DNA from: Deltaproteobacteria bacterium | GTDB lineage: Bacteria > Myxococcota_A > UBA796 > SXON01 | Assembly: GCA_947484175.1 (NCBI GenBank) | Contig: CANKOI010000008.1 | Span: forward strand, 2,637-66,636 | Length of the DNA stretch: 64,000 nt | Direction: 5' to 3' | In this document: piece by piece, positions 5,445 to 18,666 of the stretch | Position numbering within the stretch: position 1 is the stretch's first letter | Layout: the number at the start of each line of letters is the position of its first letter | Position numbers and translations under genes: made by a program | The notes under the pieces: generated by a model | What the model was told of the DNA's origin: nothing | Databases searched by the model: none | Seen by the model: the letters and a program-made list of their open reading frames with translations, nothing else

Positions 5445-7961
5445 CTACTCGCTCCGCGCGAGCAGGGCGGTGAGGTCGTCCCGGTAGCCGCGGGCCCCAT
5501 CGGCAGCCACGGTCACCGCGCCATCGGCCCCCACCAGCAGGACGTCGTCTTCGCGGAAGGCGCGAGCGGCGTTCTGGAGGTTCACGAGGTTGAGCGCCTC
5601 GGGGCGGGTGAGCTCGTCGGCCGCGAGCATGGCCCGACCTCGCGTGAGGGCGTCGGCGGGCAGCGACTTCCAGGTAGAGCGGCCGTCGCCCGCGGTGAGG
5701 AGCAGCAGCAAGTAGGACTCAAGGAAGTTGGCGGTGAGGTTCGCCACCTCGCCCACGCGCGAACGGTCGCACACGATCACCTGGGTGCCACGCAGCTCCA
5801 CTGCGCCGTAGGCCACGAGCTCCGCCACGGCGCGCCGCTCGTGCTCCTGCGCGTCGGCATCCGGGTCGAGGATGAACTCGTACCGCAGGAGGAACTGCTG
5901 CACCGTGAGGAGGCGCGTGACCTCGTGCAGGTCGATCTCGTCGTGGCCCAGCGCCCGCACGGCGCCGGCAAAATAGGCCGCCGGCGCGAAGGCGTGCATC
6001 ACGGCGTTCTTGTAGTAGTCGAGCGTGATTCGCCGGTCGGGCTGGACGATGTACACGACGTCGCCGCCTTCCCTGACTTCGGTGAGCATCCGCCCCGAAC
6101 GGAAGCGCGAGATCGCCTCGTCCAAGATGCCGTCCACGTGGGAAACCGCGCGGCCCTCCTTCACGCCGGCCACCTGCAAGAAAGCCCGCAGGCGCTCCAC
6201 CCGGGCCTTCAGCTCCTCGCGGCGAACCCCCCGGCGCGGGTGGGCCAAAACCGCCAGAGCGACCAGCGATGTGGGCAGCAGCACGGCCTCCCCGTTGATG
6301 CGGTGCAGAATGCGCTCGCCGAGCCCGAGCAGCGCCTCATCCCGTTCGGCACGCGACTTCGCATTCCACTCGGCGGCCGAGCCCAGACTGTCGGCCCGGA
6401 TGGGCTCGCCTACCCGGAGGTACACCTTGCCGTACCGCTCTCGGATCACGCTGGCGGCGCGCGCCAACTGGCCGACGGACTCCTTCTCCTTGCTCGCCCC
6501 CGCCAGCTCCCGCGCGTACACCCGCTCCTCGGCGATCTGTTCGTACCCCACGTAGATGGGCAGGAAGGTGACCGCACGACCCTCGCGGGCATTCGCAGCG
6601 GCGTTCATGATCATGCCGAGCACACCCACCTTGGGAGGCAGCAGCTTGCCCGTTCGAGACCGGCCGCCTTCGATGAAGAATTCCACCGGCACTTCCATGC
6701 GAACCAACTCTCGGAGGTATCGCTCGAATACGACCGGGAAAATCCGGTCGCCCTGAAAGCTTCGTTTGATGAAGAAGGCCCCGCAGCGCCGCACAAAAGG
6801 GCCGAACGGGAAGAACGCGAGGTTGTCCCCCGCCACGATGTGCGGAATGACAATGTCCTTGCTCAAGAGCAACGACGAGATCAGCAGGTAGTCGAGGTGG
6901 CTGCGATGGCACGGCACGAGGATGGGGGTGCCGTCGCGGAGCGCGCTGCGAATCCGCTCGAGGTCTTCTTCACGCACGTCGATTCCACTGTAGATCCGGT
7001 TCCAAATCTGGAAGCAGAACCAGCCGGCAAAACGAACGAAGGGAAAGGAAAAGCGCGCCGCGATTCGATCAAAGGTGCGAGCGACCTTCGCCAGCACCTC
7101 CTCGGGGGGGCGATTCGTGGCAGCCGCCTCCCGCACGATGAGCTCTCGCACCTCGTGGCTCTCGAGCACCTGTCGACGAACGAACCCGCGAGGCCGCGCC
7201 CTCGGCCCGCGCACCACCCGCGACTCGCGGTACAGGAAGCGCCGCAGAACCAGGCGCAGGCGGCGATTGCGGGTGGCGGGCGGCTCCTCCGAGAACCGCT
7301 CCGTCCACTCGGAGAGCGTGATCGGTTCGCCCACCTGAACCAGCGCCTCGCCGGTGGAGCGTGCCAGCGCGAGCAGCTTCCCGATGGGCCCGGGTGAATC
7401 CTCCGTTCCCAGCAGGAACCGGCCCACCTCCGTGCGCGAGGGCTCCGGGGAGCGATCCCAGATCACCACCACTGGCACCACCTGCACCGGCCGGGCCGAA
7501 CGCGCCTGTGCCGCCACAAGGTGCGGGATCAGGTCGTCCTCGACCGGGGCGAGGCCAACGAGCTCGCGGATGTCCCACGGCGTTCCGAGGAAGATGCAGG
7601 TCGGGCTTCCGGCCTCGATGAAGCGGCCGAGCTGGTCGGGTCCGCTCGCGTCGGCCGCACCGAAGAGGCGGCCGAGCATGGAGAAGGGGAACCACCGCCT
7701 GGCGTCAAACCCCGCCGTGAAGGCTGGCAAGGGCAGGCGGCGCTCGTTGAACACACTCTGCACCGCGAGCCAGTCCACATGCGAGCGGGTGTGCAGGGCG
7801 TACACGATCGGTCCCCGCTCCGCGGCGCGGCGCACCCGCTCCGCGCTGTGATCCTCCATCCGGAGGCGGCGGAGGAACAACTGAAGGCCGCTCAGCCAGT
7901 ACAGGGGGCCCTGCACGGGGAGCATCGCCGAAGAGTGGGGCGCCGCCACGAGCGGGCTCAT
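5445..7961 (-). CDS. plsB: Glycerol-3-phosphate 1-O-acyltransferase
   Basis: 838 aa. It carries the acyltransferase HX4D motif (HRSHLDYLL) and the downstream FFIKRSF and FIEGGRSRTGK blocks typical of PlsB. The length is in the PlsB range. Confidence 0.93.
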   Translation of the reverse strand: MSPLVAAPHSSAMLPVQGPLYWLSGLQLFLRRLRMEDHSAERVRRAAERGPIVYALHTRSHVDWLAVQSVFNERRLPLPAFTAGFDARRWFPFSMLGRLFGAADASGPDQLGRFIEAGSPTCIFLGTPWDIRELVGLAPVEDDLIPHLVAAQARSARPVQVVPVVVIWDRSPEPSRTEVGRFLLGTEDSPGPIGKLLALARSTGEALVQVGEPITLSEWTERFSEEPPATRNRRLRLVLRRFLYRESRVVRGPRARPRGFVRRQVLESHEVRELIVREAAATNRPPEEVLAKVARTFDRIAARFSFPFVRFAGWFCFQIWNRIYSGIDVREEDLERIRSALRDGTPILVPCHRSHLDYLLISSLLLSKDIVIPHIVAGDNLAFFPFGPFVRRCGAFFIKRSFQGDRIFPVVFERYLRELVRMEVPVEFFIEGGRSRTGKLLPPKVGVLGMIMNAAANAREGRAVTFLPIYVGYEQIAEERVYARELAGASKEKESVGQLARAASVIRERYGKVYLRVGEPIRADSLGSAAEWNAKSRAERDEALLGLGERILHRINGEAVLLPTSLVALAVLAHPRRGVRREELKARVERLRAFLQVAGVKEGRAVSHVDGILDEAISRFRSGRMLTEVREGGDVVYIVQPDRRITLDYYKNAVMHAFAPAAYFAGAVRALGHDEIDLHEVTRLLTVQQFLLRYEFILDPDADAQEHERRAVAELVAYGAVELRGTQVIVCDRSRVGEVANLTANFLESYLLLLLTAGDGRSTWKSLPADALTRGRAMLAADELTRPEALNLVNLQNAARAFREDDVLLVGADGAVTVAADGARGYRDDLTALLARSE

Positions 7962-7967
7962 CCCTCG

Positions 7968-8231
7968 CTATGCCCCGCTGTCGCCACTGCCACAGTCGCT
8001 GGTGAGTTCGGCATCCACGTCGTTGCAGTCCCCACCCAACTTCACGTAGCCCGCGGGCGCCGCGCAACCCACGTACACCGAGCGCTCGTTACCGACGCCG
8101 TCCTCATCGAGGTCTTCGTAGAAGAGCGTGCGCGGCTCGCATTCCCGTTCGCCATCGGCAGAGTAGAGATCGGGGAGGTCGCAGCCGGCGAGCGCGACGA
8201 GAAGCAAGGGGGAGCGCATCGCGGCACGCAT
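7968..8231 (-). CDS. Small lipoprotein with a Cys/Asp 'putative metal-binding' (MopE-like) motif
   Basis: Signal peptide with lipobox (LLLVALAGC). Motif DLDEDGVG...GGDCNDVD. It lies 3 nt downstream of the FHA gene and 6 nt upstream of plsB. Confidence 0.75.
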   Translation of the reverse strand: MRAAMRSPLLLVALAGCDLPDLYSADGERECEPRTLFYEDLDEDGVGNERSVYVGCAAPAGYVKLGGDCNDVDAELTSDCGSGDSGA

Positions 8232-8234
8232 AAC

Positions 8235-8642
8235 TCACCCCCTCATGGAGCCCGTCACGTTGCCGACACGAACGGTCGAGCCGGGTACGACCTCCGCCGC
8301 CTCCCCGGGAGGGAGTCGCCACTCCCCCACCCACGTGCCGTTGGTGCTGCCCAGATCGCGCAGCAGCCACGCGCCATCCGAGACCACGAACTCGGCATGC
8401 CGCCGACTCACGCTGTCGTCGTCGAGCTCCACATCTGCGCCGACGCCGCCTTCCGTGCGCCCCACCAACAGCCGACTTCCCATGAGCGGCCAGCTACTTG
8501 CGCCAACCACCAGAACGATCGCTCCGGCGCGCTGATCCGGCACAGCGGCGGCAATGGCGGTGGCGCGAGAACGCGCTGGCGGAGGCGGAGCAGCGGGCAC
8601 TGCCTCGGGAACCGGGGCCGCGAGTCCTTTCCGCTCACGCAT
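8235..8642 (-). CDS. FHA domain protein (phosphothreonine reader)
   Basis: The internal ATG (MRERKG...) overlaps the vWA stop by 8 nt. FHA core: LLVGRTEGGVGADVELDDDSVSRRHAEFVVSDGAWLLRDLGSTNGTWV. The exact start is uncertain because the ORF extends to 8762. Confidence 0.85.
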   Translation of the reverse strand: MRERKGLAAPVPEAVPAAPPPPARSRATAIAAAVPDQRAGAIVLVVGASSWPLMGSRLLVGRTEGGVGADVELDDDSVSRRHAEFVVSDGAWLLRDLGSTNGTWVGEWRLPPGEAAEVVPGSTVRVGNVTGSMRG

Positions 8643-9693
8643 CACGGCTGCCCGACAGCCGGCGGGTGTGGCGCAGCGGGTCCTCCGGATCGTCGGCCAT
8701 GGAGCGGAGCTGGGCGGTACGGGCGAGCTCGACGCGTACCCGGAACTGGTCCACCTCGGCATTGAGCGCCCGGAGCGCGGCGGAGCGCGGCGCCGCGACG
8801 GTCAGTGTGAGGTCGACAGCCACCTCGGTGCCCTCGGCCTGCCGAACGCGGAGGGTCCCCACGCTGCGGACGCCCCGGCCGGCAGCAAGCGGCGCTCGAT
8901 AGCGGACACGGAAGCCGATCCCGCCACCCTCACCAACCGCGACCGCCACCCGCCCAGCCGCCAGAGTGAGTGGCTCCACTCGCGGCGCCACCCGCCACGC
9001 CTCGTGGACCTCCAGCACATCGGAGTCGAGGGCGAGAGTCAACTCGACCTCCTCGGCCGCGTCGCCCCGCAGCACGCCCAAGATTCGCTCCGGCAACCCC
9101 GAGGGTTCGACACCCACGGCGGATGTCCCCCCGCCGGCATCTGCGAGCGACCGAAGAAAGCTCCCGTCGTAGCTCGCGGCGCTCCCAATGCCGATCACAC
9201 TGGTGCGAACCCCGCTGGCGCCGAGGGAGCGCGCTTGAGAGAGGATCGGATCGACAGCGGCAAGGCGCCCGTCCACATCCGTCGGGTCGCCGTCGGTGAG
9301 CACCACGACGTAGCGCGGACCCGACCGGTCGGTCATCCACTTCGCGCACGCGCTGAGGGCGAGGTCGAGCCGAGTCTTGCCGCTCGCGCCGACCCCGGCC
9401 AGCACCGCGCCGACGTCAGCGCCACCTGGGGTGTCGAGCACCTCCGTGACCGCGCTGCCGAAGGAATACACGACGAGCCGATCGGCGGGAAGACAGGCAG
9501 AAACGAGCCCCGCAACGGCCTCTCGGGCGTACGCGAGGCGACGGCCCAACATCGACGTACTCGTGTCCATCAGGATGGCGAACGAGGCGGGTTGGTCGGT
9601 GCGCGGGAAGCCGCGGAGCGTGGCCACCAGCCAGTGCTCGCTGTCGCCAGAGGTGGCGTTGCGGTCCCACCCGAGCTCGATGCGGAGGCTCAC
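8635..9693 (-). CDS. von Willebrand factor A (vWA) domain protein with C-terminal beta-rich extension
   Basis: The GTG at 9693 forms a GTGA overlap with the upstream AAA+ stop. MIDAS-type DxSxS is present (ILMDTSTSM), followed by GKTRLDLAL and VVVLTDGDPTD blocks. Confidence 0.88.
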   Translation of the reverse strand: MSLRIELGWDRNATSGDSEHWLVATLRGFPRTDQPASFAILMDTSTSMLGRRLAYAREAVAGLVSACLPADRLVVYSFGSAVTEVLDTPGGADVGAVLAGVGASGKTRLDLALSACAKWMTDRSGPRYVVVLTDGDPTDVDGRLAAVDPILSQARSLGASGVRTSVIGIGSAASYDGSFLRSLADAGGGTSAVGVEPSGLPERILGVLRGDAAEEVELTLALDSDVLEVHEAWRVAPRVEPLTLAAGRVAVAVGEGGGIGFRVRYRAPLAAGRGVRSVGTLRVRQAEGTEVAVDLTLTVAAPRSAALRALNAEVDQFRVRVELARTAQLRSMADDPEDPLRHTRRLSGSRDA

Positions 9694-11573
9694 AGAACCG
9701 GCCCCACGATCACCTCGCCCTCGCGAGCCCGAACCACGATCGCACGCCCCGGAGTGGCGAGGACCGCGCGATTGACGGGAGCGAGGATCCGGCTCTGAAC
9801 GAAGTTCCGGATGCCGCGCCCACCCAACGCGATCACGGCGGGATGCTGGCATTCCTTGCGGCCAAACTCCAGGAGGGAGGGCTCAAAGCTCACCTCCACG
9901 CCATACTTCTCGCGCGCGGAATCCCGAATGCCGCCCAAGAACTTCGCGAGGATGCCATCGATGTGGGCGTCGCGCAGGCGGTCGAAGGCCACCACGCGCT
10001 CCTCGCCGATGCGCCCCAGCAGCTCCGGGCGGCCGATGCGGAGGAAGTGCTCCCGCACAGCGGAGCGGTAGTGGTCGGCCAGCGCGGCGCCGTCGAGGGC
10101 GGGATCCACGGAAGAGACCACGCGGTCGGTGCCATCGGGCAAGCGTTCCAAACGAGTGGAGCCGATGTTGCTCGTGAAGATCAGAAAGGCCTGACCAAAG
10201 TACACGGTGTCGCCGAGGCCATCGGTGAGCCGGCCGTCGTCGAGAATCTGGAGGAACCGATCGAGGATCCGCGGATGCGCCTTCTCGATCTCATCGAACA
10301 GCAGCAGGCTGAACGGGCGCTCCTTCATCCGATTGGTGAGCTGCCCCCCGGCTTCGTACCCGATGTAGCTGGGCGGGGCGCCGGTCAGCCGCTCGGCGGC
10401 GTGCTCTTGGGCGTACTCGCTCATGTCGAACCGCGCGAACGCGGTCGGGTCGTGAAACACCAACTCCGTGACGGCCTTGGCGAGCTCCGTCTTGCCCACC
10501 CCCGTAGGACCCACGAAGAACAGCACCCCCTTGGGCCGTGGCGAAGGGCGGGCGCCGTCGAGCCCGATCCCGCCGCGAGCCATCGTGAGCACGTCGAGCA
10601 CGGCGTCGACAGCAGCCTCCTGCCCCATCACCTGTCGGGTGAGTCGTTCGCGGGCGTGCCCGAGCACCTCGATGTTCAGCCGCTCCCAGGGGTCCTCGCG
10701 GGTGCCGTGGCGGAAAACGTCGAGCAACTTGCGGGTGTCGCCGATGGCGATCCGCTCGTGGTGCGAGGCGAGGCGCAGCGCTTCGAGGTCCCAGAAGGAC
10801 ATGCCGTCGGTAAGGGCGCCGAAGCCATCGACAACGTCGCCGGAAGGCTCCTCGGCAAGCGCGCCGAAGAACCCTCGCCACTGGCGGCTCAAAAACGCCT
10901 CACGGTCGGGCCGGTCGGGGCGCGCGACGCCCACCACCTGCACCAACGGGTGCTCGCGGTACAGCCAGGTCGGAATCTGGCCGAGCACGGGCGCCACCAA
11001 GACGAGCGCGTTCCGCATCCCTGCGCGCGGACCAGCGGTGTGCCGAGCGGTTTCGTCCATGGCCAACTGCATCGTGACCAGCAGCCCCCGCTCGTCGGGC
11101 GGCTGTTGTTCGGAGAACACTCGGTCGGCGAGATCCACCACCATCGAGCTCGCAGCGTCCGAGGCTGCCAGCACGCGACGGGCAGACGAGAGCGCGAGGT
11201 GGGGGGCGACATGCAGGGCCGGCTGGGGAGCCATCGCGTCGGGGGGGGCGGGCACGGCGGCCTCCGCGGCCCCAGAACGCCGCGGAAGCTGGTACGCACG
11301 TCCGCGGGGCGCGGCGGCCAAGGCGGGGTCTCGCTCCAACTCCTCCCAACGACTGCGCATGGCGGGGTCGGTAAACGTGATCCCGTCGGCCTGATTCCAA
11401 CGCGCGCGCACCTCGTACCCGGCGCTCTCGAGCGCGGCGTCCAGCGCGTCGGCGAAGGCCAGAGGAACGCCCTCGAACATGGCAAGGTCGCGCACGTTGC
11501 CGTGAAGCACCACGTGGCGCCCGCGACGAAGGTGAGACACCACGTCGCGGATCCACCGGGCGGTCGTGGTCAC
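9690..11573 (-). CDS. AAA+ ATPase: degenerate N-terminal AAA-like domain plus ClpA/ClpB D2-type unfoldase module
   Basis: The GTG at 11573 forms a GTGA overlap with the kinase stop. Walker A is GPTGVGKT. The pore-loop region is PPSYIGYEAGGQLT. Walker B is LLLFDEIEKAHP. A ClpB_D2-small-like tail is present. The N-terminal half has HVVLHGNVRD where a P-loop would sit. Confidence 0.88.
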   Translation of the reverse strand: MTTTARWIRDVVSHLRRGRHVVLHGNVRDLAMFEGVPLAFADALDAALESAGYEVRARWNQADGITFTDPAMRSRWEELERDPALAAAPRGRAYQLPRRSGAAEAAVPAPPDAMAPQPALHVAPHLALSSARRVLAASDAASSMVVDLADRVFSEQQPPDERGLLVTMQLAMDETARHTAGPRAGMRNALVLVAPVLGQIPTWLYREHPLVQVVGVARPDRPDREAFLSRQWRGFFGALAEEPSGDVVDGFGALTDGMSFWDLEALRLASHHERIAIGDTRKLLDVFRHGTREDPWERLNIEVLGHARERLTRQVMGQEAAVDAVLDVLTMARGGIGLDGARPSPRPKGVLFFVGPTGVGKTELAKAVTELVFHDPTAFARFDMSEYAQEHAAERLTGAPPSYIGYEAGGQLTNRMKERPFSLLLFDEIEKAHPRILDRFLQILDDGRLTDGLGDTVYFGQAFLIFTSNIGSTRLERLPDGTDRVVSSVDPALDGAALADHYRSAVREHFLRIGRPELLGRIGEERVVAFDRLRDAHIDGILAKFLGGIRDSAREKYGVEVSFEPSLLEFGRKECQHPAVIALGGRGIRNFVQSRILAPVNRAVLATPGRAIVVRAREGEVIVGPVL

Positions 11574-13399
11574 GTGCGCACAGGGCCCGGAACCGGGCTC
11601 ACGAGGTTCATCGTCAGACGACTGCCGGCCTTTGGATCCGGAGCGTCGGACAGCCACGCTTCGTTCACATCCTTCAGCATCTCCACGGCGGCCTTGCCGA
11701 AGGCCTGGAGCAGCACCCCTCCCACGGTGGGAGGGGCTCGTCGTTGCGGAACGCCCGACCGGCGGTCGAGGAGCGGGTTCGGCCGCGACGACGTCGGAGG
11801 GGCCTTGGCCGCCGCTGCAAGCTGCTGCCGATACGCCTTGATCCCGTCGTATTCGAAGATTTTCGGCCAGCGGAGATCATCCACCGGAAACCGCCGCTGC
11901 GCGGCGCCGAGGAAGCTCCCGGCGAGATCGCCCGCGGCAAGAGCGGTGGTGTTCGGGTCGAGGGTGGCGGGGGCAGGTAGGCCCGTGAGCGCGGTCCACT
12001 CACGAATCGTGATCGGACTCGTGCTGTGCCACACACCAACCAGCCCTCCCACGTTCGCCCCGCCGCTGCGGAGTGCCGCGAAGACCTGCGTTGTTCCCTT
12101 GTGAAGCTGAGAGATGGATCGGTAGACGAGCAGGTGGTGAACCCCGCCGCCGAGGTCGAGGACGCGGGTGGCGCCCGGTTCGGGCGGGTAGAGGCGCGCG
12201 AGGAGCGCATCGCGCACCCGCGCGAGCCCAGCCTCGTCAGGAGCGTCGAGGTCGTCCAGCAGCTCTGCCCACGCTGGAGCGGACCAGCGCGGCCCCCCGA
12301 GCCCCTCCACCCACTTGTGAACGCGGCCCATCACGGCGCGCGCCTCATCCGTGGCGACATCCAACTCGGGCGCCAGCTGCCCCGCCCGGCGAATCAGATC
12401 CCGCTCGGTCAGCCCCTGTTCTCGAGCGGGCGCCTCGGCGGCACGCATGAACGCCCGCCACGGCTCGGCATCTCCCCAGCGCTCGCCGTGCACCCAGACG
12501 TGGCGGCGAAGAGCGGGGTCGAGGGGGGTGGGGGTGCTCGCGGGGATCGGCGCCAGCGATGGGGGCGCGGATGCTTCCACGTCAGGCGCCACGCGCACAG
12601 CTTCGGGCTGAGCCGGAGCCTCGACCGACGCTGGTTCCCTCGACTGGACCGCCGCCACCACCCGAGCGAGCGGCCAGCGCTGATCGGGCTCCTTTTTCGT
12701 GCAGCCCCGGATCAGCTCCACGAACGCCGGGGGCATGTCCGGCGGAAACTCAATCTCGGCAGACAGGTGCTTGCTCATCAGCTCGTTGGGGTTGCCGTCG
12801 AAGGGAATTCGCCCCGTGAGGAACTCGTAGACCGCGCAGCCGAGCGCGTACACGTCGACTCCGGGGCCCATCTTGCCGGAGAATACCTCGGGGGCCGCGT
12901 AGGCCAAGCTCGTGGTGGAAGTGGAGCGGGGAGTGCCAGCGAGCGCGCTGGCGGTGCCCACATCGCCCAGCTTCGCGGCTCCACGAACGAACAGGATGTT
13001 CGCGGGCTTCACGTCGCGATGCACCCAGCCCTCCGCATGGAGGTGAGCAAGCGCTGACGCGACGGCCCGAACGATCTCGCTCACTTCGTCAACGGGGAGG
13101 CCGTCCGGCCACAACTTCAGCCGGCCGGCGCCATCCCCGCCGTCGGCAAGCTCAGTGACCAGGCAGACCTCTTCGTCGTCTTCAACGACGGCCCTGTACG
13201 CGAGGACGGATGGGTGCGAGATTCGGGCAAGCAGGGCGATCTCGCGCCGATCGACCTCGGCGGTGAACACCTTGACCGCTACCGTCGCCACGGGCTCACC
13301 CGCGAGCAGCTCCTCGGCCTCCCACACAACACCGGAGCTCCCGCGGCCAAGACGCTTCTTCAAACGGTAGCGGCCGGCGATCACGCGCCCTTTCGACAT
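11570..13399 (-). CDS. Ser/Thr protein kinase with about 340-aa unassigned C-terminal region
   Basis: Hanks kinase motifs are present: GRGSSGVVW, VAVK, HRDVKPANIL, DVGTA, APE. The C-terminal region after about aa 265 matches no family I recognise. Confidence 0.93.
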   Translation of the reverse strand: MSKGRVIAGRYRLKKRLGRGSSGVVWEAEELLAGEPVATVAVKVFTAEVDRREIALLARISHPSVLAYRAVVEDDEEVCLVTELADGGDGAGRLKLWPDGLPVDEVSEIVRAVASALAHLHAEGWVHRDVKPANILFVRGAAKLGDVGTASALAGTPRSTSTTSLAYAAPEVFSGKMGPGVDVYALGCAVYEFLTGRIPFDGNPNELMSKHLSAEIEFPPDMPPAFVELIRGCTKKEPDQRWPLARVVAAVQSREPASVEAPAQPEAVRVAPDVEASAPPSLAPIPASTPTPLDPALRRHVWVHGERWGDAEPWRAFMRAAEAPAREQGLTERDLIRRAGQLAPELDVATDEARAVMGRVHKWVEGLGGPRWSAPAWAELLDDLDAPDEAGLARVRDALLARLYPPEPGATRVLDLGGGVHHLLVYRSISQLHKGTTQVFAALRSGGANVGGLVGVWHSTSPITIREWTALTGLPAPATLDPNTTALAAGDLAGSFLGAAQRRFPVDDLRWPKIFEYDGIKAYRQQLAAAAKAPPTSSRPNPLLDRRSGVPQRRAPPTVGGVLLQAFGKAAVEMLKDVNEAWLSDAPDPKAGSRLTMNLVSPVPGPVRT

Positions 13400-13405
13400 C
13401 GGTTC

Positions 13406-14506
13406 CTACCCGCGCCTTCGCGTCGAGGACGGGCCGCCCGACGGCAATGCATTCGCGTTCTGCCCCTCTCGCGCCGGGTTCTTCGTCTCCCAAAAAAGCT
13501 CGCCGGTCGCGACCCCGAACCGCTCGGCGAGGTCGGTGTGCAGCGCCACCAGCCGAAGCTCGGTCTCGTCGCAGCGGGTGTATGCGGCACCATCGGCGCC
13601 GCGCTCCGTGACCCGCTCGGCACCATCGACGTCGTAGAACACATGCCCTTCCACAGGTACGCTCACATCGACCCAGCGGCGGTCTGCCCGCACGGCACGG
13701 AAGGCTACCTCGCTGTCGAACCCGCCACCGACCAGCGAGGCCTCCCCGACCTGGAAACCCTGCTCCCGCAGGCCCTCTCGGAGCGCGGCCACGATGTGTG
13801 CGCGTCGCTCCTCGGCCAGTTGCCGGTCCTGCGCGGTGAGCAACGCGGCGTCGAGCCGGGCGTTGAGCGCACACGCAGCCTCGTCAGGTTCATTTGCAGC
13901 TGCCAAAGCTGACAACGCATCGGTAACGGCGCGAACCTCGTCCCCACACCAAGCCATCGTCACTTCGTCGGCCTCAAAACCGGCGAGTCTGGCCTGCAGT
14001 TCGGCCGTCACGGCAGCGACGATCCCCTGACGGGACGGCTCATCCGACTGCGCGACCGCGGCCAATCTTGCCGCCTCCGCGGCGATTTCTCGGCGGATGG
14101 TATCCGTTTCTGCCGCGATGGCCGCCTCTTGGCTCGCGATGCGGCCTCCGATCGCCGCAACGCCCGCGGCGAGGGCGCGGATCTTGCTGACCGCCGCGCC
14201 CAACGACGCGGGGTCGCGGCGAGGGAAAGCTACGATGTTGTCGATCTGGGCTTCGAGGTGGGGAATGCCGCCGGGTACGGAAAGGTCCGGGGCCGCGGCC
14301 CGCAGCGCTCTCACCGCCGAGCGTAAGCTCTCCGACTCGCCGGCGAGGCTCGCCCGGAGCTGCTCCGCGAGCGCGATGCGGGCGCGCTCCGACGCCGCCT
14401 CGCGCCGACGGCACTCCTCCTCCGCCTTGCCAGCCCGCGCCTCGGCAAGCCGCCGCTCTTCCGGCTCCAGGAGCCGGATTTCCGCTGCTTTCGGAGACCC
14501 GCTCAT
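13406..14506 (-). CDS. Coiled-coil hypothetical protein with C-terminal globular domain
   Basis: 366 aa. The N-terminal two-thirds is Ala/Glu/Arg-rich and heptad-like. The ATG at 14506 forms an ATGA overlap with the radical-SAM stop. The gene ends 6 nt before the kinase start. Confidence 0.7.
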   Translation of the reverse strand: MSGSPKAAEIRLLEPEERRLAEARAGKAEEECRRREAASERARIALAEQLRASLAGESESLRSAVRALRAAAPDLSVPGGIPHLEAQIDNIVAFPRRDPASLGAAVSKIRALAAGVAAIGGRIASQEAAIAAETDTIRREIAAEAARLAAVAQSDEPSRQGIVAAVTAELQARLAGFEADEVTMAWCGDEVRAVTDALSALAAANEPDEAACALNARLDAALLTAQDRQLAEERRAHIVAALREGLREQGFQVGEASLVGGGFDSEVAFRAVRADRRWVDVSVPVEGHVFYDVDGAERVTERGADGAAYTRCDETELRLVALHTDLAERFGVATGELFWETKNPAREGQNANALPSGGPSSTRRRG

Positions 14507-15138
14507 GCCCAGACACCCTCATGGCCCGTCAGCAGCATCCCACGGCTCGCACCAGCCCGGCGAAGCCGGGCGGAGAAGTCCGAGCTCGGCACGCCCGCCC
14601 AGAACACGTTGCTCTCTCGGTCTAGGCGCAACTCCACCCCGACTCCCGGAGAGTCCAGCGTCGCCGCGAGGTGGGCGTACCGTGGAGTGAGGAGGTGGAC
14701 ACGCTGATTCGCGGAGCCGCGCCACAGGAGATCGGCCTGCTGCTCCAAAACGAAAGGGCCATCGACCAGAATGTCCGTGGCGGCGAGGAGGGCCGCGACA
14801 CCCGGGTCTGGCGACGCTCGCAATTCCCCGAGGGTGAAACCGGTGTAGACCATCACCGACACGCCTGCGCTCTGAAGGCGGTCAGCCACCGCGGCCAGCG
14901 CGTCGGCCTGCTCGAAGGGCTCACCCCCCGAGAACGTGGCTCCCTCCTCGCCCGGGGCCTCGAGGATTCGCTGGGCGGCCGCGTCGGGGTCGAGCACGAG
15001 CGATGGCCCTTCGCCGAGAATGGGGGTGGCAATGCAACCGGGACACCGCCGGGCACAGCCGCGCACCCACAGGACCGTCCGGCGCCCAGGACCCAAGGTG
15101 GTGCATCCGTGCAAAACGTGGGCGAGGCGCACCTGCAT
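14503..15138 (-). CDS. Small radical-SAM activating enzyme (NrdG/PflA-activase-like, 4Fe-4S single-cluster type)
   Basis: The 211-aa product starts at the internal ATG 15138 (MQVRLAHVLHGCTTLGPG). Cluster motif: WVRGCARRCPGC (CX3CX2C). SAM-binding motif: FSGGEP. Size and layout match the NrdG-type activases. Confidence 0.8.
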   Translation of the reverse strand: MQVRLAHVLHGCTTLGPGRRTVLWVRGCARRCPGCIATPILGEGPSLVLDPDAAAQRILEAPGEEGATFSGGEPFEQADALAAVADRLQSAGVSVMVYTGFTLGELRASPDPGVAALLAATDILVDGPFVLEQQADLLWRGSANQRVHLLTPRYAHLAATLDSPGVGVELRLDRESNVFWAGVPSSDFSARLRRAGASRGMLLTGHEGVWA

Positions 15139-15243
15139 CAGGGTTGGCCGCTGCGTGGCATGGATGAACCACAGCCCTAACGTGAACACCGAGCGGGCGG
15201 TCCGCCGCACGCCGCCGCGCCTTGTCCGTCGACATTCATCGGC

Positions 15244-15255
15244 ATATCGCGATAT
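15244..15255. promoter_or_regulatory. Perfect 12-bp AT-rich palindrome ATATCGCGATAT in the metH / radical-SAM divergent intergenic region
   Basis: Read directly from the sequence, 9 nt upstream of the metH ATG (15265). It is the most AT-rich element in the 126-bp divergent region. Any operator or -10 role is inferred. Confidence 0.35.
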
Positions 15256-15264
15256 ACCGAACGC

Positions 15265-18200
15265 ATGTCCATCTTCCGTGATGCCCTTGTTGACCGTGTG
15301 CTCATCTTCGATGGAGGCATGGGCACCCAACTGCAGGGCTTCGACCTTCCGTTGTCGGATTACAACGGCCTGGAGAACTGCTCGGAGATCCTGAACCTCA
15401 CCCGCCCGGATGTGGTGGGCGCCATCCACCGCCGCTACTTCGAGGCCGGCGCCGACATCGTGGAAACGAACAGTTTCGGTGGCGCACCCTGGGTGCTGGC
15501 GGAGTTCGGACTGCAGGACCAGACCGAGGAGATCAACTTCCGCTCCGCCGAACTGGCCCGCGAAGCCGCCATCCACGCTTCCACCGATGCGCGCCCCCGC
15601 TTTGTGGCCGGCTCGATCGGCCCCGGCACCCGGCTGCCCACGCTCGGCCACATCCACTGGGACGAGATGTTTGCCGGCTACCGTCGGCAGGTGCGCGGCC
15701 TCGTGGACGGCGGCTGCGACGTGCTCCTCGTCGAAACCTGTCAGGACCTGCTCCAAACGAAGTGTGCAGTGGCCGCGATCGTCGACGAACTGGCCGCCAT
15801 GGGCCGAGACGTACCGATCATGGCGCAGGTCACGATGGAGACGACCGGCACGATGCTCCTCGGGAGCGACATCGCCGCGGCGCTCACGGTGCTGGAACAG
15901 TACCCCATCGATCTCATCGGTCTCAACTGTGCGACAGGGCCGCAGGAGATGGCCAGCCACATCGCCTTCTTGGGGCGCCACAGTCGCACGCGGATCAGCG
16001 TTTTGCCCAACGCGGGCCTGCCCCAGCTCGTAGACGGCCGCACCCACTACCCGCTCGGCCCCGCGGAGCTAGCCGACTGGCACGTCCGTTTCGTGAAGGA
16101 GGACGGCGTGAACGCGGTGGGCGGCTGCTGCGGCACCACTCCCGACCACATCCGCGCGGTGGCGGAGCGGGTTCTGGGGCTCAAACCGAAACATCGGGTT
16201 CCCGACTTCATCCCCAGCGCATCGAGCCTCTACTCGCCCGTGCCCTTGCGTCAGCAGGCCGACATCTTCGCGGTGGGCGAGCGCACCAACGCCAACGGCT
16301 CTCGCCAGTTCAAACGCATGCTGGACGCGCAGGACTGGGACGGCATGGTGGGAATGGGCAAAGATCAGGTGCGCGGCGGCAGCCACGCGGTCGATGTGTG
16401 TACCGCGTTCGTGGGCCGCAACGAGGTGGTGGACATGGACGAGTTGGTGCGCCGGATGGTGCAGAGCGTGCAGGCGCCGCTCGTGATCGACTCCACGGAG
16501 GTTCCGGTCTTGGAGGCAGCCCTCAAGCGCATCGGCGGCAAGCCCATCGTGAACAGCATCAACCTCGAAGACGGCGAAGCGCGGCTCGACCAGGTGTGTG
16601 TGCTCTGCAAGCGGCACGGCGCCGGCGTGATCGCGCTCACGATCGACGAAGAGGGGATGGCCAAACGACCGGAGCAGAAGCTCGCGGTCGCCGAGCGGCT
16701 CTACGACCTCGCCGTGAACCGCCACGGCATGCAGCCCGACGACATCTTCTTCGACCCGCTCACCTTCACCATCGCCACCGGCAACGAAGACGACCGGAAG
16801 CTCGGCCTGTGGACGCTCGAGGGCATCCAACTCATCGCCACCCGCTTTCCGCGCTGCGGCATCCTGCTGGGCCTCTCCAACATCAGCTTCGGCCTGAACC
16901 CGGCGGCGCGCCACGCCCTGAACTCGGTGTTCCTGCACCACGCTCGCGAGGCCGGCATGACCGCCGCCATCGTGCACGCCGAGAAGATCATGCCGCTTTA
17001 CAAACTCGAGCCCGAGGTGCGAGAGGTGTGCGAGGACCTCATCTGGGACCGGCGCCGAGAGGGCTACGACCCGCTCATGCGGCTGCTCGCGATCTTCGCT
17101 GACCGGAAGGTGGAAAAGACAGTGCGGAAGGTGGCCGAAACCGTAGAGGAGCGGCTGAAGGAGCGCATCGTGGAGGGGGACCGAAACGGCTTGGAGGTCG
17201 ACCTTGAAGAGGCCCTGAAGACTTACACGCCGCTGGCGATCATCAACGACTTGCTGCTCGACGGCATGCGGGTCGTGGGCGAACTGTTCGGCTCCGGCCA
17301 GATGCAGCTCCCGTTCGTGCTCCAGAGCGCGGAGACGATGAAGACGGCGGTGGCGTGGCTGCAGCCGTTCATGGACAAGGTGCAGGGGCCGGCCAAGGGC
17401 ACGATGGTGCTGGCCACCGTGCGCGGCGACGTCCACGACATTGGCAAGAACCTCGTGGACATCATCCTCAGCAACAACGGCTACAAGGTGGTGAACATCG
17501 GCATCAAACAGCCGATCGACCGAATCCTTGCGGCCGCCCAGGAGCACTCCGCAGATGTGATCGGGATGAGCGGGCTGCTCGTAAAGAGCACCGTGATCAT
17601 GAAGGAGAACCTCGAGGAGATGCGGCGGCAGGGCTGGACGACGCCCGTGGTACTCGGGGGCGCAGCGCTGACCCGTAGCTACGTGGAAGTGGACTGTTCG
17701 CAGACCTACGGGCGCAAGGTGAGCTACGCCCGCGACGCCTTCGCGGGCCTGCATTTCATGGAGAAGCTCCGGGAGTGGGACGACACCCTCGCGCCCGCCG
17801 AAACCGGCGAGGGCGGCGCCCCCGTGGTGCCCACCCGCGGCGAACGCCCGATCCCCTACGACGCCCGCGATGCCGAGCCGATCGAACCCGTGGCCACCCC
17901 CGCCATGCCCGCGCTCGGCGCGCGCTTGGCAGAGGTGCCGCTCAAGGCGCTCCTCCCCTGGCTCAACGAGGATGTGCTCTTCAAATTCCAATGGGGTTTT
18001 CTGCGTAAGAACCTCAGCACGGAAGAGCACGCAGAGCAGCTCCGCACCGTGGTGCGCCCCATTCTCGTCGACCTCGCGGACCGCGCGGCGCGCGAAGGCA
18101 TCCTCCGCCCTCAGGCGCTCTACGGCTTCTTCCGGGCCCGGAGCGAGGGCGATGCGCTCGTGTTTCTCGACCACGACCTGCGCCTCCCCTTCCCACGGCA

Positions 18201-18666
18201 GCGCCGCCCGGACGGATCCCCGGGGCTCTGCCTCGCCGACTACGTGCGCCCCGACGAAGATGTCGTGGGCCTTCAGCTGGTCACGGTCGGGCACCGCGCC
18301 ACGGAGGTCTGCCAGGAGTGGTTCGAGGCCAACAAATACACCGAGTACCTCTACCTTCACGGGCTCGCGGTCGAAACCACCGAGGCGCTCGCCGAGTACG
18401 TGCATAAACAGATGCGCGCGGAGCTCGGGATCAGCGCGCACGACGCGCGCGAGCTTCCCGACCTTTTCCGCAAGAAGTACCAAGGCTGCCGCTACGCCTA
18501 CGGCTACCCGGCCTGCCCCGACATGGCCGACCAGCAGCACCTCCTGCGCCTCTTAGGCGCCGACCGCATCGGCGTGACGATGGACGCCGACGAGCAGCTC
18601 TTTCCCGAGCAGTCGACGGCGGCGATCGTCGTGCATCACCCGCAGGCCCGGTACTTTCGGGTCTAG
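15265..18666 (+). CDS. metH: Cobalamin-dependent methionine synthase
   Basis: 1133 aa. It has an Hcy-methyltransferase N-terminus (LIFDGGMGTQL, ETNSFG) and a pterin-binding region. The B12-binding motif is GDVHDIGKN. A C-terminal AdoMet reactivation domain is present. Confidence 0.97.
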   Translation: MSIFRDALVDRVLIFDGGMGTQLQGFDLPLSDYNGLENCSEILNLTRPDVVGAIHRRYFEAGADIVETNSFGGAPWVLAEFGLQDQTEEINFRSAELAREAAIHASTDARPRFVAGSIGPGTRLPTLGHIHWDEMFAGYRRQVRGLVDGGCDVLLVETCQDLLQTKCAVAAIVDELAAMGRDVPIMAQVTMETTGTMLLGSDIAAALTVLEQYPIDLIGLNCATGPQEMASHIAFLGRHSRTRISVLPNAGLPQLVDGRTHYPLGPAELADWHVRFVKEDGVNAVGGCCGTTPDHIRAVAERVLGLKPKHRVPDFIPSASSLYSPVPLRQQADIFAVGERTNANGSRQFKRMLDAQDWDGMVGMGKDQVRGGSHAVDVCTAFVGRNEVVDMDELVRRMVQSVQAPLVIDSTEVPVLEAALKRIGGKPIVNSINLEDGEARLDQVCVLCKRHGAGVIALTIDEEGMAKRPEQKLAVAERLYDLAVNRHGMQPDDIFFDPLTFTIATGNEDDRKLGLWTLEGIQLIATRFPRCGILLGLSNISFGLNPAARHALNSVFLHHAREAGMTAAIVHAEKIMPLYKLEPEVREVCEDLIWDRRREGYDPLMRLLAIFADRKVEKTVRKVAETVEERLKERIVEGDRNGLEVDLEEALKTYTPLAIINDLLLDGMRVVGELFGSGQMQLPFVLQSAETMKTAVAWLQPFMDKVQGPAKGTMVLATVRGDVHDIGKNLVDIILSNNGYKVVNIGIKQPIDRILAAAQEHSADVIGMSGLLVKSTVIMKENLEEMRRQGWTTPVVLGGAALTRSYVEVDCSQTYGRKVSYARDAFAGLHFMEKLREWDDTLAPAETGEGGAPVVPTRGERPIPYDARDAEPIEPVATPAMPALGARLAEVPLKALLPWLNEDVLFKFQWGFLRKNLSTEEHAEQLRTVVRPILVDLADRAAREGILRPQALYGFFRARSEGDALVFLDHDLRLPFPRQRRPDGSPGLCLADYVRPDEDVVGLQLVTVGHRATEVCQEWFEANKYTEYLYLHGLAVETTEALAEYVHKQMRAELGISAHDARELPDLFRKKYQGCRYAYGYPACPDMADQQHLLRLLGADRIGVTMDADEQLFPEQSTAAIVVHHPQARYFRV

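Follow-up and report, generated by a model that had tools for sequence, protein, structure and literature searches.

The activases named in a 2026 review of glycyl-radical enzymes (GREs; PMC13450708) all act on a GRE in anaerobic metabolism. Among them, the pyruvate formate-lyase activating enzyme (PFL-AE) is the only one with an experimental structure, and both PFL-AE and the activase of ribonucleotide reductase (RNR) have a radical-SAM core with no auxiliary ferredoxin domain (PMC13450708). A radical-SAM protein has also been described in biological conflict systems by Kaur et al. 2020 (eLife, PMC7159879), where a 'distinctive' member, mentioned only for the FtsH ternary systems, 'likely modifies a peptide-effector'; DO-GTPase, GAP1 and Hsp70 are components of the conflict systems treated in the same work, which also points to a kinase/PP2C/vWA theme in actinobacterial GAP1-N2 neighbourhoods. 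The present analysis deals with a stretch of 64,000 nucleotides of contig CANKOI010000008.1 from a Deltaproteobacteria bacterium (the window, at its full length) and, in particular, with its gene for an NrdG-like radical-SAM protein (hereafter rSAM). Comparison of sequences and gene neighbourhoods indicates that rSAM is a component of a conserved multi-gene system, together with a coiled-coil protein that typically starts with MSGSPKYS (the partner), an AAA+ ATPase of the type of the second nucleotide-binding domain (NBD2) of ClpB, and a Ser/Thr phospho-signalling set of kinase, FHA and vWA proteins, with PP2C found elsewhere. In the window, the six genes of this system are:

14503-15138, minus strand: NrdG-like radical-SAM protein (rSAM), 211 amino acids (aa), from translation, motifs, Fer4_12 match and AlphaFold2 model
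13406-14506, minus strand: 'MSGSPKYS' partner, 366 aa, with an N-terminal strand, a helical coiled coil and a C-terminal beta-sheet head
11570-13399, minus strand: Hanks-type Ser/Thr kinase, with the kinase domain at residues 1-260 (Pkinase, E 7.1e-44) and a C-terminal region of ~350 aa
9690-11573, minus strand: single-ring AAA+ ATPase of the ClpB/ClpC NBD2 type, 627 aa (public gene call), with an N-terminal region of ~300 aa
8635-9693, minus strand: vWA-domain protein, 352 aa, Pfam VWA_2 and VWA, start from the public gene call
8235-8483, minus strand: small FHA-domain protein, 82 aa (public gene call), FHA E 1.6e-15

All six genes, from rSAM to FHA, follow each other on one strand with overlaps or gaps of no more than ~150 nt. 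The first-pass annotation of this DNA, made from the letters alone, had already pointed to a start/stop overlap between rSAM and the coiled-coil gene, and this is indeed found as ATGA at 14503-14506; downstream, the GTG start of the AAA+ gene (11573) overlaps the kinase stop as GTGA, and the vWA start overlaps the AAA+ stop by 4 nt. The rSAM open reading frame (ORF) is intact, and its translation bears out the 211-aa protein with a CX3CX2C cluster (CARRCPGC) and SGGEP reported in that annotation, the full motifs being GCARRCPGC (C28, C32 and C35) and FSGGEP; residues 16-148 match Pfam Fer4_12 with an E of 7.6e-27. The range of 14503-15264 given there includes, besides the rSAM gene, the 126 bp that separate it from the metH ATG (15265). 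Public gene calls for the same contig omit rSAM, which explains why its exact sequence is missing from the protein collection, and call a 161-aa antisense ORF in its place. This antisense ORF, at 14695-15180 on the plus strand of the window (9327-9812 on the minus strand of L108-L111), has no Pfam match. The rSAM frame is nevertheless the true gene, because it keeps all the residues that are invariant in the family alignment and because its nearest full-length homologues are ~80% identical.

Evidence for a conserved system comes from the gene context of rSAM relatives. A word-index search retrieved thousands of them, annotated merely as 'radical SAM' or '4Fe-4S single cluster domain', and a scan of one genome per species gave 80 rSAM loci, whose neighbours were clustered and their representatives annotated. 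In a rough neighbour-joining tree the rSAM sequences are grouped by gene context, with ten nrdD-linked sequences forming a separate clade (D) in which nrdD is immediately adjoining. An AAA+ gene was found within 7 kb for at least 52 of 86 rSAM sequences, and nrdD for 10 of them. The window belongs with clade A, defined by rSAM, partner, AAA_2 and kinase, whose loci are labelled as Streptomyces, Actinospica, Actinocrispum, Thermoguttaceae, Bacillota, Thermodesulfovibrio and an unclassified metagenome contig; the same four genes are also found together on a Geminocystis plasmid. A locus labelled as an uncultured Rickettsiales metagenome-assembled genome (L006) carries an rSAM 66% identical to that of the window. 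Gene order varies: rSAM, a 457-aa protein, kinase, AAA_2, vWA and FHA in the unclassified metagenome contig; vWA, PP2C, kinase, rSAM, a 463-aa protein, AAA_2, Hsp70, DO-GTPase2 and GAP1 in Streptomyces; and a 329-aa protein, AAA_2, rSAM, FHA, PP2C and kinase in Bacillota. Altogether, rSAM, partner and AAA+ are linked in loci that have been assigned to seven phyla, with kinase, FHA, vWA and PP2C (the latter in L003, L005, L023, L089 and L094) as usual companions. The link with a coiled-coil protein and a kinase module that the first-pass annotation had seen in one locus is thus a recurrent one; the ClpB-like AAA+ as the most constant companion of rSAM, and the likeness to published conflict systems, were not mentioned in it.

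Several other groups of loci keep a pairing of rSAM with an AAA+. In a proteobacterial variant, AAA_2 and rSAM precede a 2,091-aa fusion of kinase, DUF4011, SF1 helicase and REase, and fusions of this kind (~2,100 aa, with an AAA_11/AAA_12 helicase and REase_MTES_1575) replace the coiled-coil partner in L047 (4805-11080), L067 and L079. The fusion is divided into two genes in L077, and a DUF4236 protein is encoded upstream of the AAA+ in L047. Clade B comprises 17 loci, 16 of them from actinomycetes of the Actinomadura or Streptomyces type; here rSAM is accompanied by a 456-aa 'MSGAKRITVD' protein and a double AAA+. Clade C has rSAM with an FtsH-like AAA+ that lacks the peptidase, plus a small protein. 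Clade E, with rSAM, fvmX6, fvmX5 and FtsH, is the FtsH ternary system described by Kaur et al. 2020. AAA+ is the most constant companion across clade A, the proteobacterial variant and clades B, C and E, and the AAA+ families differ. Clade F, made of six cyanobacterial loci (L009-L014, Laspinema / Oscillatoria) with no AAA+ nearby, may represent a different use of the same rSAM family; a short-chain dehydrogenase and a membrane protein with an S26 signal-peptidase domain are found among its neighbours. A Thermoguttaceae contig (L007) holds two rSAM+AAA+ modules (1-1291 and 9989-14273), ~9 kb apart, whose rSAMs fall in separate clades, one near the FtsH-type clades C and E and the other in A.

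A reciprocal test that did not depend on rSAM was done by searching metagenome contigs with a DNA pattern for the partner motif CDE[AT]E-(22 aa)-W[ED]GKDP, which gave 21 loci. In 10 of the 13 testable loci the partner is immediately preceded by an rSAM gene, and AAA_2 is close downstream of the partner (upstream in one) in about 16 of 18, by our count; vWA, FHA, PP2C and kinase genes are also frequent there. From these counts, partner and AAA+ are the tightest pair at the level of gene order, and rSAM is a frequent third member.

By enzyme type, rSAM is best classified as an activase-like hydrogen-atom abstractor, because NrdG is its best-matching family, activase motifs are common to all clades and PFL-AE is its best fold match; it is not an NrdG equivalog. 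Its top NCBIfam match is NrdG TIGR02491 (E 1e-21), with 77.5 bits against an equivalog cut-off of 126.1, which is not reached; PRK11121 gives 52.5 bits against a cut-off of 199, and the PFL activase models ~28 bits against 232. An alignment of 87 relatives revealed that [D/L/E]GPGxR, followed by CX3CX2C, SGGEPFEQA, DGPF and RGSxNQR, are common to every clade, the nrdD-adjacent one included, and the CX3CX2C and GGE-type glycine-rich SAM motifs of rSAM are both invariant in an alignment of 82 sequences. Vey et al. 2008 reportedly assigned the GPGxR segment a role in peptide binding by PFL-AE. As in NrdG, we find only a radical-SAM core in rSAM, with no additional cysteine cluster and no auxiliary ferredoxin domain, and nrdD-adjacent and phage NrdGs are ~32-44% identical to it over residues 1-150.

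Other features set rSAM apart from NrdG. In the window's clade, Leu replaces the Asp before GPG and, unlike in nrdD-linked NrdGs, there is no His-Asn after the third cysteine; moreover, phage and clostridial NrdGs align to residues ~1-150 of rSAM only, so that its C-terminal extension of ~60 aa is without counterpart in nrdD-linked NrdGs. That rSAM could be an ordinary NrdG, activating an NrdD encoded elsewhere in the genome and placed by accident in a kinase operon, would agree with NrdG being the best-scoring named family, but we judge it very improbable, since the score stays under the equivalog cut-off, the clade never adjoins nrdD and stands apart from the ten sequences that do, its arrangement with partner and AAA+ is kept in loci assigned to seven phyla, and the additional C-terminal residues are unmatched by phage NrdGs. 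To our knowledge, moreover, Streptomyces and Actinomadura, which are among the carriers, are aerobes generally without class III RNR. The first-pass annotation had considered that the activase might cluster with true NrdG with no conserved adjacency, or that a GRE might be the only conserved partner of its clade; what was found is a separate clade whose conserved partners are the operon proteins and not a GRE. Its observation that the window holds no GRE, and that no RVxG-type motif is seen in the neighbours, also stood up: the GRE fingerprint RVxG[FWY]x6-8[FL]x4Qx2[IV]x2R, taken from PMC13450708, has no match in the six frames of the 64-kb window, and a tblastn search of the window with an NrdD query gave a best E of 0.2.

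The AlphaFold2 model of rSAM has a predicted local distance difference test (pLDDT) value of 95, and its top PDB fold match in Foldseek is PFL-AE with bound peptide substrate (3CB8; E 7.4e-8, 22-24% identity over ~130 residues), an activase fold also lacking the auxiliary ferredoxin domain; a phmmer search of PDB sequences with rSAM gave no match. The hidden Markov model (HMM) score for PFL-AE is weak, and there is no PFL or other GRE near rSAM. A second tier of fold matches comprises QueE (E 6e-5) and viperins (E 4e-4), with a comparable partial-barrel fold, and raises the question of whether rSAM acts on a small molecule as those enzymes do, yielding a modified nucleotide or a SAM-derived product as effector or signal, with partner and AAA+ as sensor or regulator. 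Viperin is an antiviral effector, and conflict systems often use nucleotide-modifying effectors. With 211 aa, rSAM is also close in length to the QueE chains that it matched (225-241 residues), some loci with partner and AAA+ do without it, and the head of the partner weakly resembles the AdoMetDC / spermine-synthase N-domain fold. We consider this explanation unlikely, because neither QueE nor viperin models appear among the 14 NCBIfam matches of rSAM at E <= 0.01, where NrdG reaches 1e-21; because the motifs follow the activase pattern common with nrdD-linked NrdGs, including the GPGxR before the cluster; and because PFL-AE is the top structural match. In addition, the constant pairing of several rSAM clades with an unfoldase-type AAA+ suggests a protein substrate.

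The candidate protein substrate that stands closest to rSAM is the coiled-coil partner, which has no Pfam, NCBIfam or PADLOC match, as is also the case for typical members of its family. A word-index search with its head gave 3 proteins, and the family was therefore collected by exhaustive search with the C-terminal 145 residues, which led to 171 representatives, most of them of 425-440 aa. They share a MSGSPKYS start, an Arg/Glu-rich coiled coil and a head of the form VSVPxxGxVxYDVDGY...CDEAE-(22 aa)-WEGKDPxR..LP, which in the window partner ends as CDExE-(22 aa)-WExKxP...LP. Invariant residues of the family are S2, W186 and C312, and P5, K6, G250, F251 and G306 are among the near-invariant ones. 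In the AlphaFold2 model of the partner (pLDDT 91), residues 6-12 form a strand, followed by long helices and, at the C-terminus, a beta-sheet head. Its sole fold matches are weak, at E 0.03, and involve the spermine-synthase N-domain / AdoMetDC fold, which we take as no more than a hint. In clade B, the protein encoded after rSAM is a homologue of this head (hhalign probability 96%, E 4e-9), and homology of the head to fvmX5 or to the small protein of clade C was not supported (hhalign probability <1%). The window partner is a short form, with ~70 coiled-coil residues fewer than the usual members, and some proteins of the family carry a hydrophobic, membrane-like segment directly after MSG.

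Several candidate target residues of the partner were considered. Gly3 of MSGSPKYS as a glycyl-radical site was rejected, given that this position is D, S, K, R, N or E in many members while S2, P5 and K6 are conserved, and the near-invariant G250-F251 lacks an RVxG setting. The idea that Cys312 serves universally as thiyl partner was weakened, as this residue is invariant in clade-A partners and missing in the homologous clade-B protein.

A different target would be the AAA+ ATPase or the foreign (phage) polypeptides that it threads, which rSAM could attack for example by Calpha-H abstraction and O2-dependent backbone cleavage, leaving the coiled coil as a scaffold or sensor. The AAA+ is the most constant neighbour across clades, its Walker A (GPTGVGKT) and Walker B (LLLFDE) motifs are intact, a tyrosine is present in the pore-loop-like SYIGY, and the proteobacterial variant dispenses with the partner altogether. 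However, no obvious common target residue is found among the differing AAA+ families, and in clades A and B rSAM and partner are tightly coupled in translation, which favours the partner. We know of no precedent for such an attack, which is speculative and in our opinion rather improbable.

Taking these lines together, we hold with moderate confidence that the activase-type rSAM abstracts hydrogen from a protein, most likely the partner, in a phospho-regulated and chaperone-driven conflict system. According to this scheme, rSAM would reductively cleave SAM and abstract a hydrogen atom from a protein other than NrdD, the likeliest target being the translationally coupled coiled-coil partner, which is favoured because this coupling is tight in clades A and B. 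The AAA+ would expose, remodel or release the target protein, and the kinase, FHA, vWA and PP2C proteins would gate the process, with phospho-signalling setting its threshold. The whole may represent a biological-conflict system of the anti-phage or abortive-infection type. A more specific version, in which rSAM puts a protein radical or a radical-derived modification on the MSGSPKYS protein, which is not of the GRE fold, aided by the AAA+ and in loci assigned to aerobic genera (Streptomyces, Actinomadura), is regarded by us as a doubtful proposal. If it were true, this would be the first activase-type radical-SAM protein working outside GREs, and the modified partner could serve as an immune switch, for instance through O2-dependent self-cleavage or cross-linking.

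Several observations weigh against the scheme. The link between rSAM and its presumed substrate is drawn from gene order and enzyme type, and no universally conserved target residue emerged, with Gly3 being variable and Cys312 missing in clade B. About one quarter of the loci with partner and AAA+ have no adjacent rSAM and still keep the MSGSPKYS motif, and the proteobacterial variant has rSAM and AAA+ without the partner, from which it follows that partner and rSAM are not obligate companions. PADLOC-DB v2 models match neither rSAM, partner nor vWA, and the defence role is suggested through guilt by association; the kinase matches generic kinase models only, and the AAA+ matches PDC-M37B and DolB over the ATPase region only. 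Finally, the operon of the window is flanked by housekeeping genes (metH, plsB and glutamine synthetase) and its GC content is uniform.

These flanks also suit a reading of the locus as a housekeeping stress or developmental module, that is, phospho-regulated protein quality control in which rSAM modifies an endogenous client. Chaperone-like components such as the ClpB NBD2 and, in some loci, Hsp70 would fit it as well. We consider it improbable in view of the setting of the related loci, which are patchily spread over phyla. One copy is plasmid-borne, on Geminocystis pGM01 (L107, 1087-12451), where three DO-GTPase-like genes separate rSAM from the partner, 7 kb away, and partner and AAA+ are split by an inserted HigB/HigA toxin-antitoxin pair. 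In the metagenome copy L001, whose rSAM is 66% identical to that of the window, an IS110-family transposase gene (16000-17208) is found between AAA+ and vWA. Some of the related loci are embedded in defence islands. Neighbours in related loci include HsdM with a NOV_C protein, AIPR, a weak MazE-like match, HsdR and MNT/HepT, so that restriction-modification, AIPR and toxin-antitoxin genes surround the system and insertion-sequence and toxin-antitoxin insertions lie within it. Some loci carry the helicase-nuclease fusion, and others are linked to DO-GTPase-type genes (Streptomyces, Thermoguttaceae and Geminocystis), with GAP1 and Hsp70 too in Streptomyces.

As for the other genes of the operon, translocase and kinase are apparently active, as judged by their motifs, and the vWA protein has a MIDAS-type motif (DTSTS). 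The AAA+ matches Pfam AAA_2 (E 1.1e-43) and ClpB_D2-small, as well as ClpB chains of the PDB (E 1e-51). The kinase keeps VAVK, HRD and APE, with DVG replacing the canonical DFG, and no domain was detected in its C-terminal ~350 residues. The start of the FHA gene is uncertain, and its ORF possibly reaches 8762. This gene is followed by an 87-aa ORF (7968-8231, minus strand) with no Pfam match on record, and a gene for a PlsB-type glycerol-3-phosphate acyltransferase (5445-7961, minus strand) begins 7 nt after it, which is why plsB may be co-transcribed with the operon.

On the opposite side of rSAM, two further features have to be taken into account:

15139-15264, no strand: spacer between the rSAM and metH starts, 126 bp, containing a palindrome
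15265-18666, plus strand: metH, cobalamin-dependent methionine synthase with five MetH Pfam domains, a neighbour outside the system

The first-pass annotation had proposed that the divergent metH, which regenerates the SAM pool, and rSAM share a control region with a 12-bp palindrome. The divergent layout, the 126-bp spacer and the palindrome are real, whereas the link to metH is not conserved, as a MetH homologue is found in 0 of 107 related loci. The palindrome ATATCGCGATAT (15244-15255) is perfect and occurs as a single copy in the window, with 0 expected by chance; it was detected in 0 of the 85 related loci searched, and the spacer gave no match either in Rfam or in a search for sigma-70-like promoters. 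A PlsB homologue is also found in 0 of the 107 loci. A coupling of the system to metH and SAM with the palindrome as a shared operator was consequently rejected, on the basis of both counts and of the lack of an Rfam element in the spacer. Since MetH and palindrome are missing from the related loci, metH adjacency and palindrome are probably incidental to the system as far as these comparisons go. The palindrome ends 9 nt ahead of the metH ATG, where a ribosome-binding site is expected, so that any function of it would more likely relate to metH. It may represent an operator specific to that gene, or else the metH start may be mis-annotated.

The interest of this locus lies in the combination of its parts. 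The clade of the window keeps the activase motifs without a GRE, together with an unfoldase and a dedicated coiled-coil protein, and it is also present in aerobic genera. If the substrate were a protein of the system, activase chemistry would be extended to a new class of targets, and a biochemical handle would be gained on the chaperone- and kinase-regulated conflict systems of bacteria with a complex development. With three core genes the system is compact, and it is found in culturable bacteria (Streptomyces, Providencia, Paraburkholderia and those with the Geminocystis plasmid). There is also an annotation gap, as neither Pfam nor NCBIfam holds a model for the partner family, rSAM was overlooked by gene callers on this contig, and RefSeq names the proteins of the ClpB-type system 'hypothetical', 'AAA family ATPase' or '4Fe-4S single cluster domain-containing protein'. 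In the literature searched no description of a ClpB-type rSAM operon was found, and only Kaur et al. 2020 covers related systems. The comparisons made here point to a widespread and unannotated system that would pair chemistry of the GRE-activase type with an unfoldase, and whose kind would be that of the NTPase/chaperone-regulated conflict systems with a radical-SAM component.

Among described systems, a vWA and a kinase in the window, together with PP2C in related loci, recall the TerY-P-like triad and the GAP1-N2 systems, the 'TerY-P' name reportedly coming from Anantharaman et al. 2012. The window operon differs from them by having FHA in place of PP2C and neither GTPase nor GAP1. For the GAP1-N2 theme, moreover, the text of Kaur et al. 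2020 mentions no radical-SAM, ClpB-like AAA+ or coiled-coil protein. The FtsH ternary systems have in common with the window a homologous rSAM, of a sister clade, adjoining an AAA+ ATPase in a multi-gene conflict system. Theirs is an FtsH-type double AAA+, with or without an M41 peptidase, accompanied by fvmX5/fvmX6 and MoxR/vWA, as seen for example in the sister-clade locus L022, whereas the window has a ClpB-NBD2-type AAA+, the MSGSPKYS protein and the kinase/FHA/vWA set. No fvmX match was obtained in the window and its AAA+ is of the AAA_2 / ClpB-NBD2 type, which places the locus outside the FtsH ternary systems. The scheme proposed here would match the logic put forward for chaperone-centred conflict systems.

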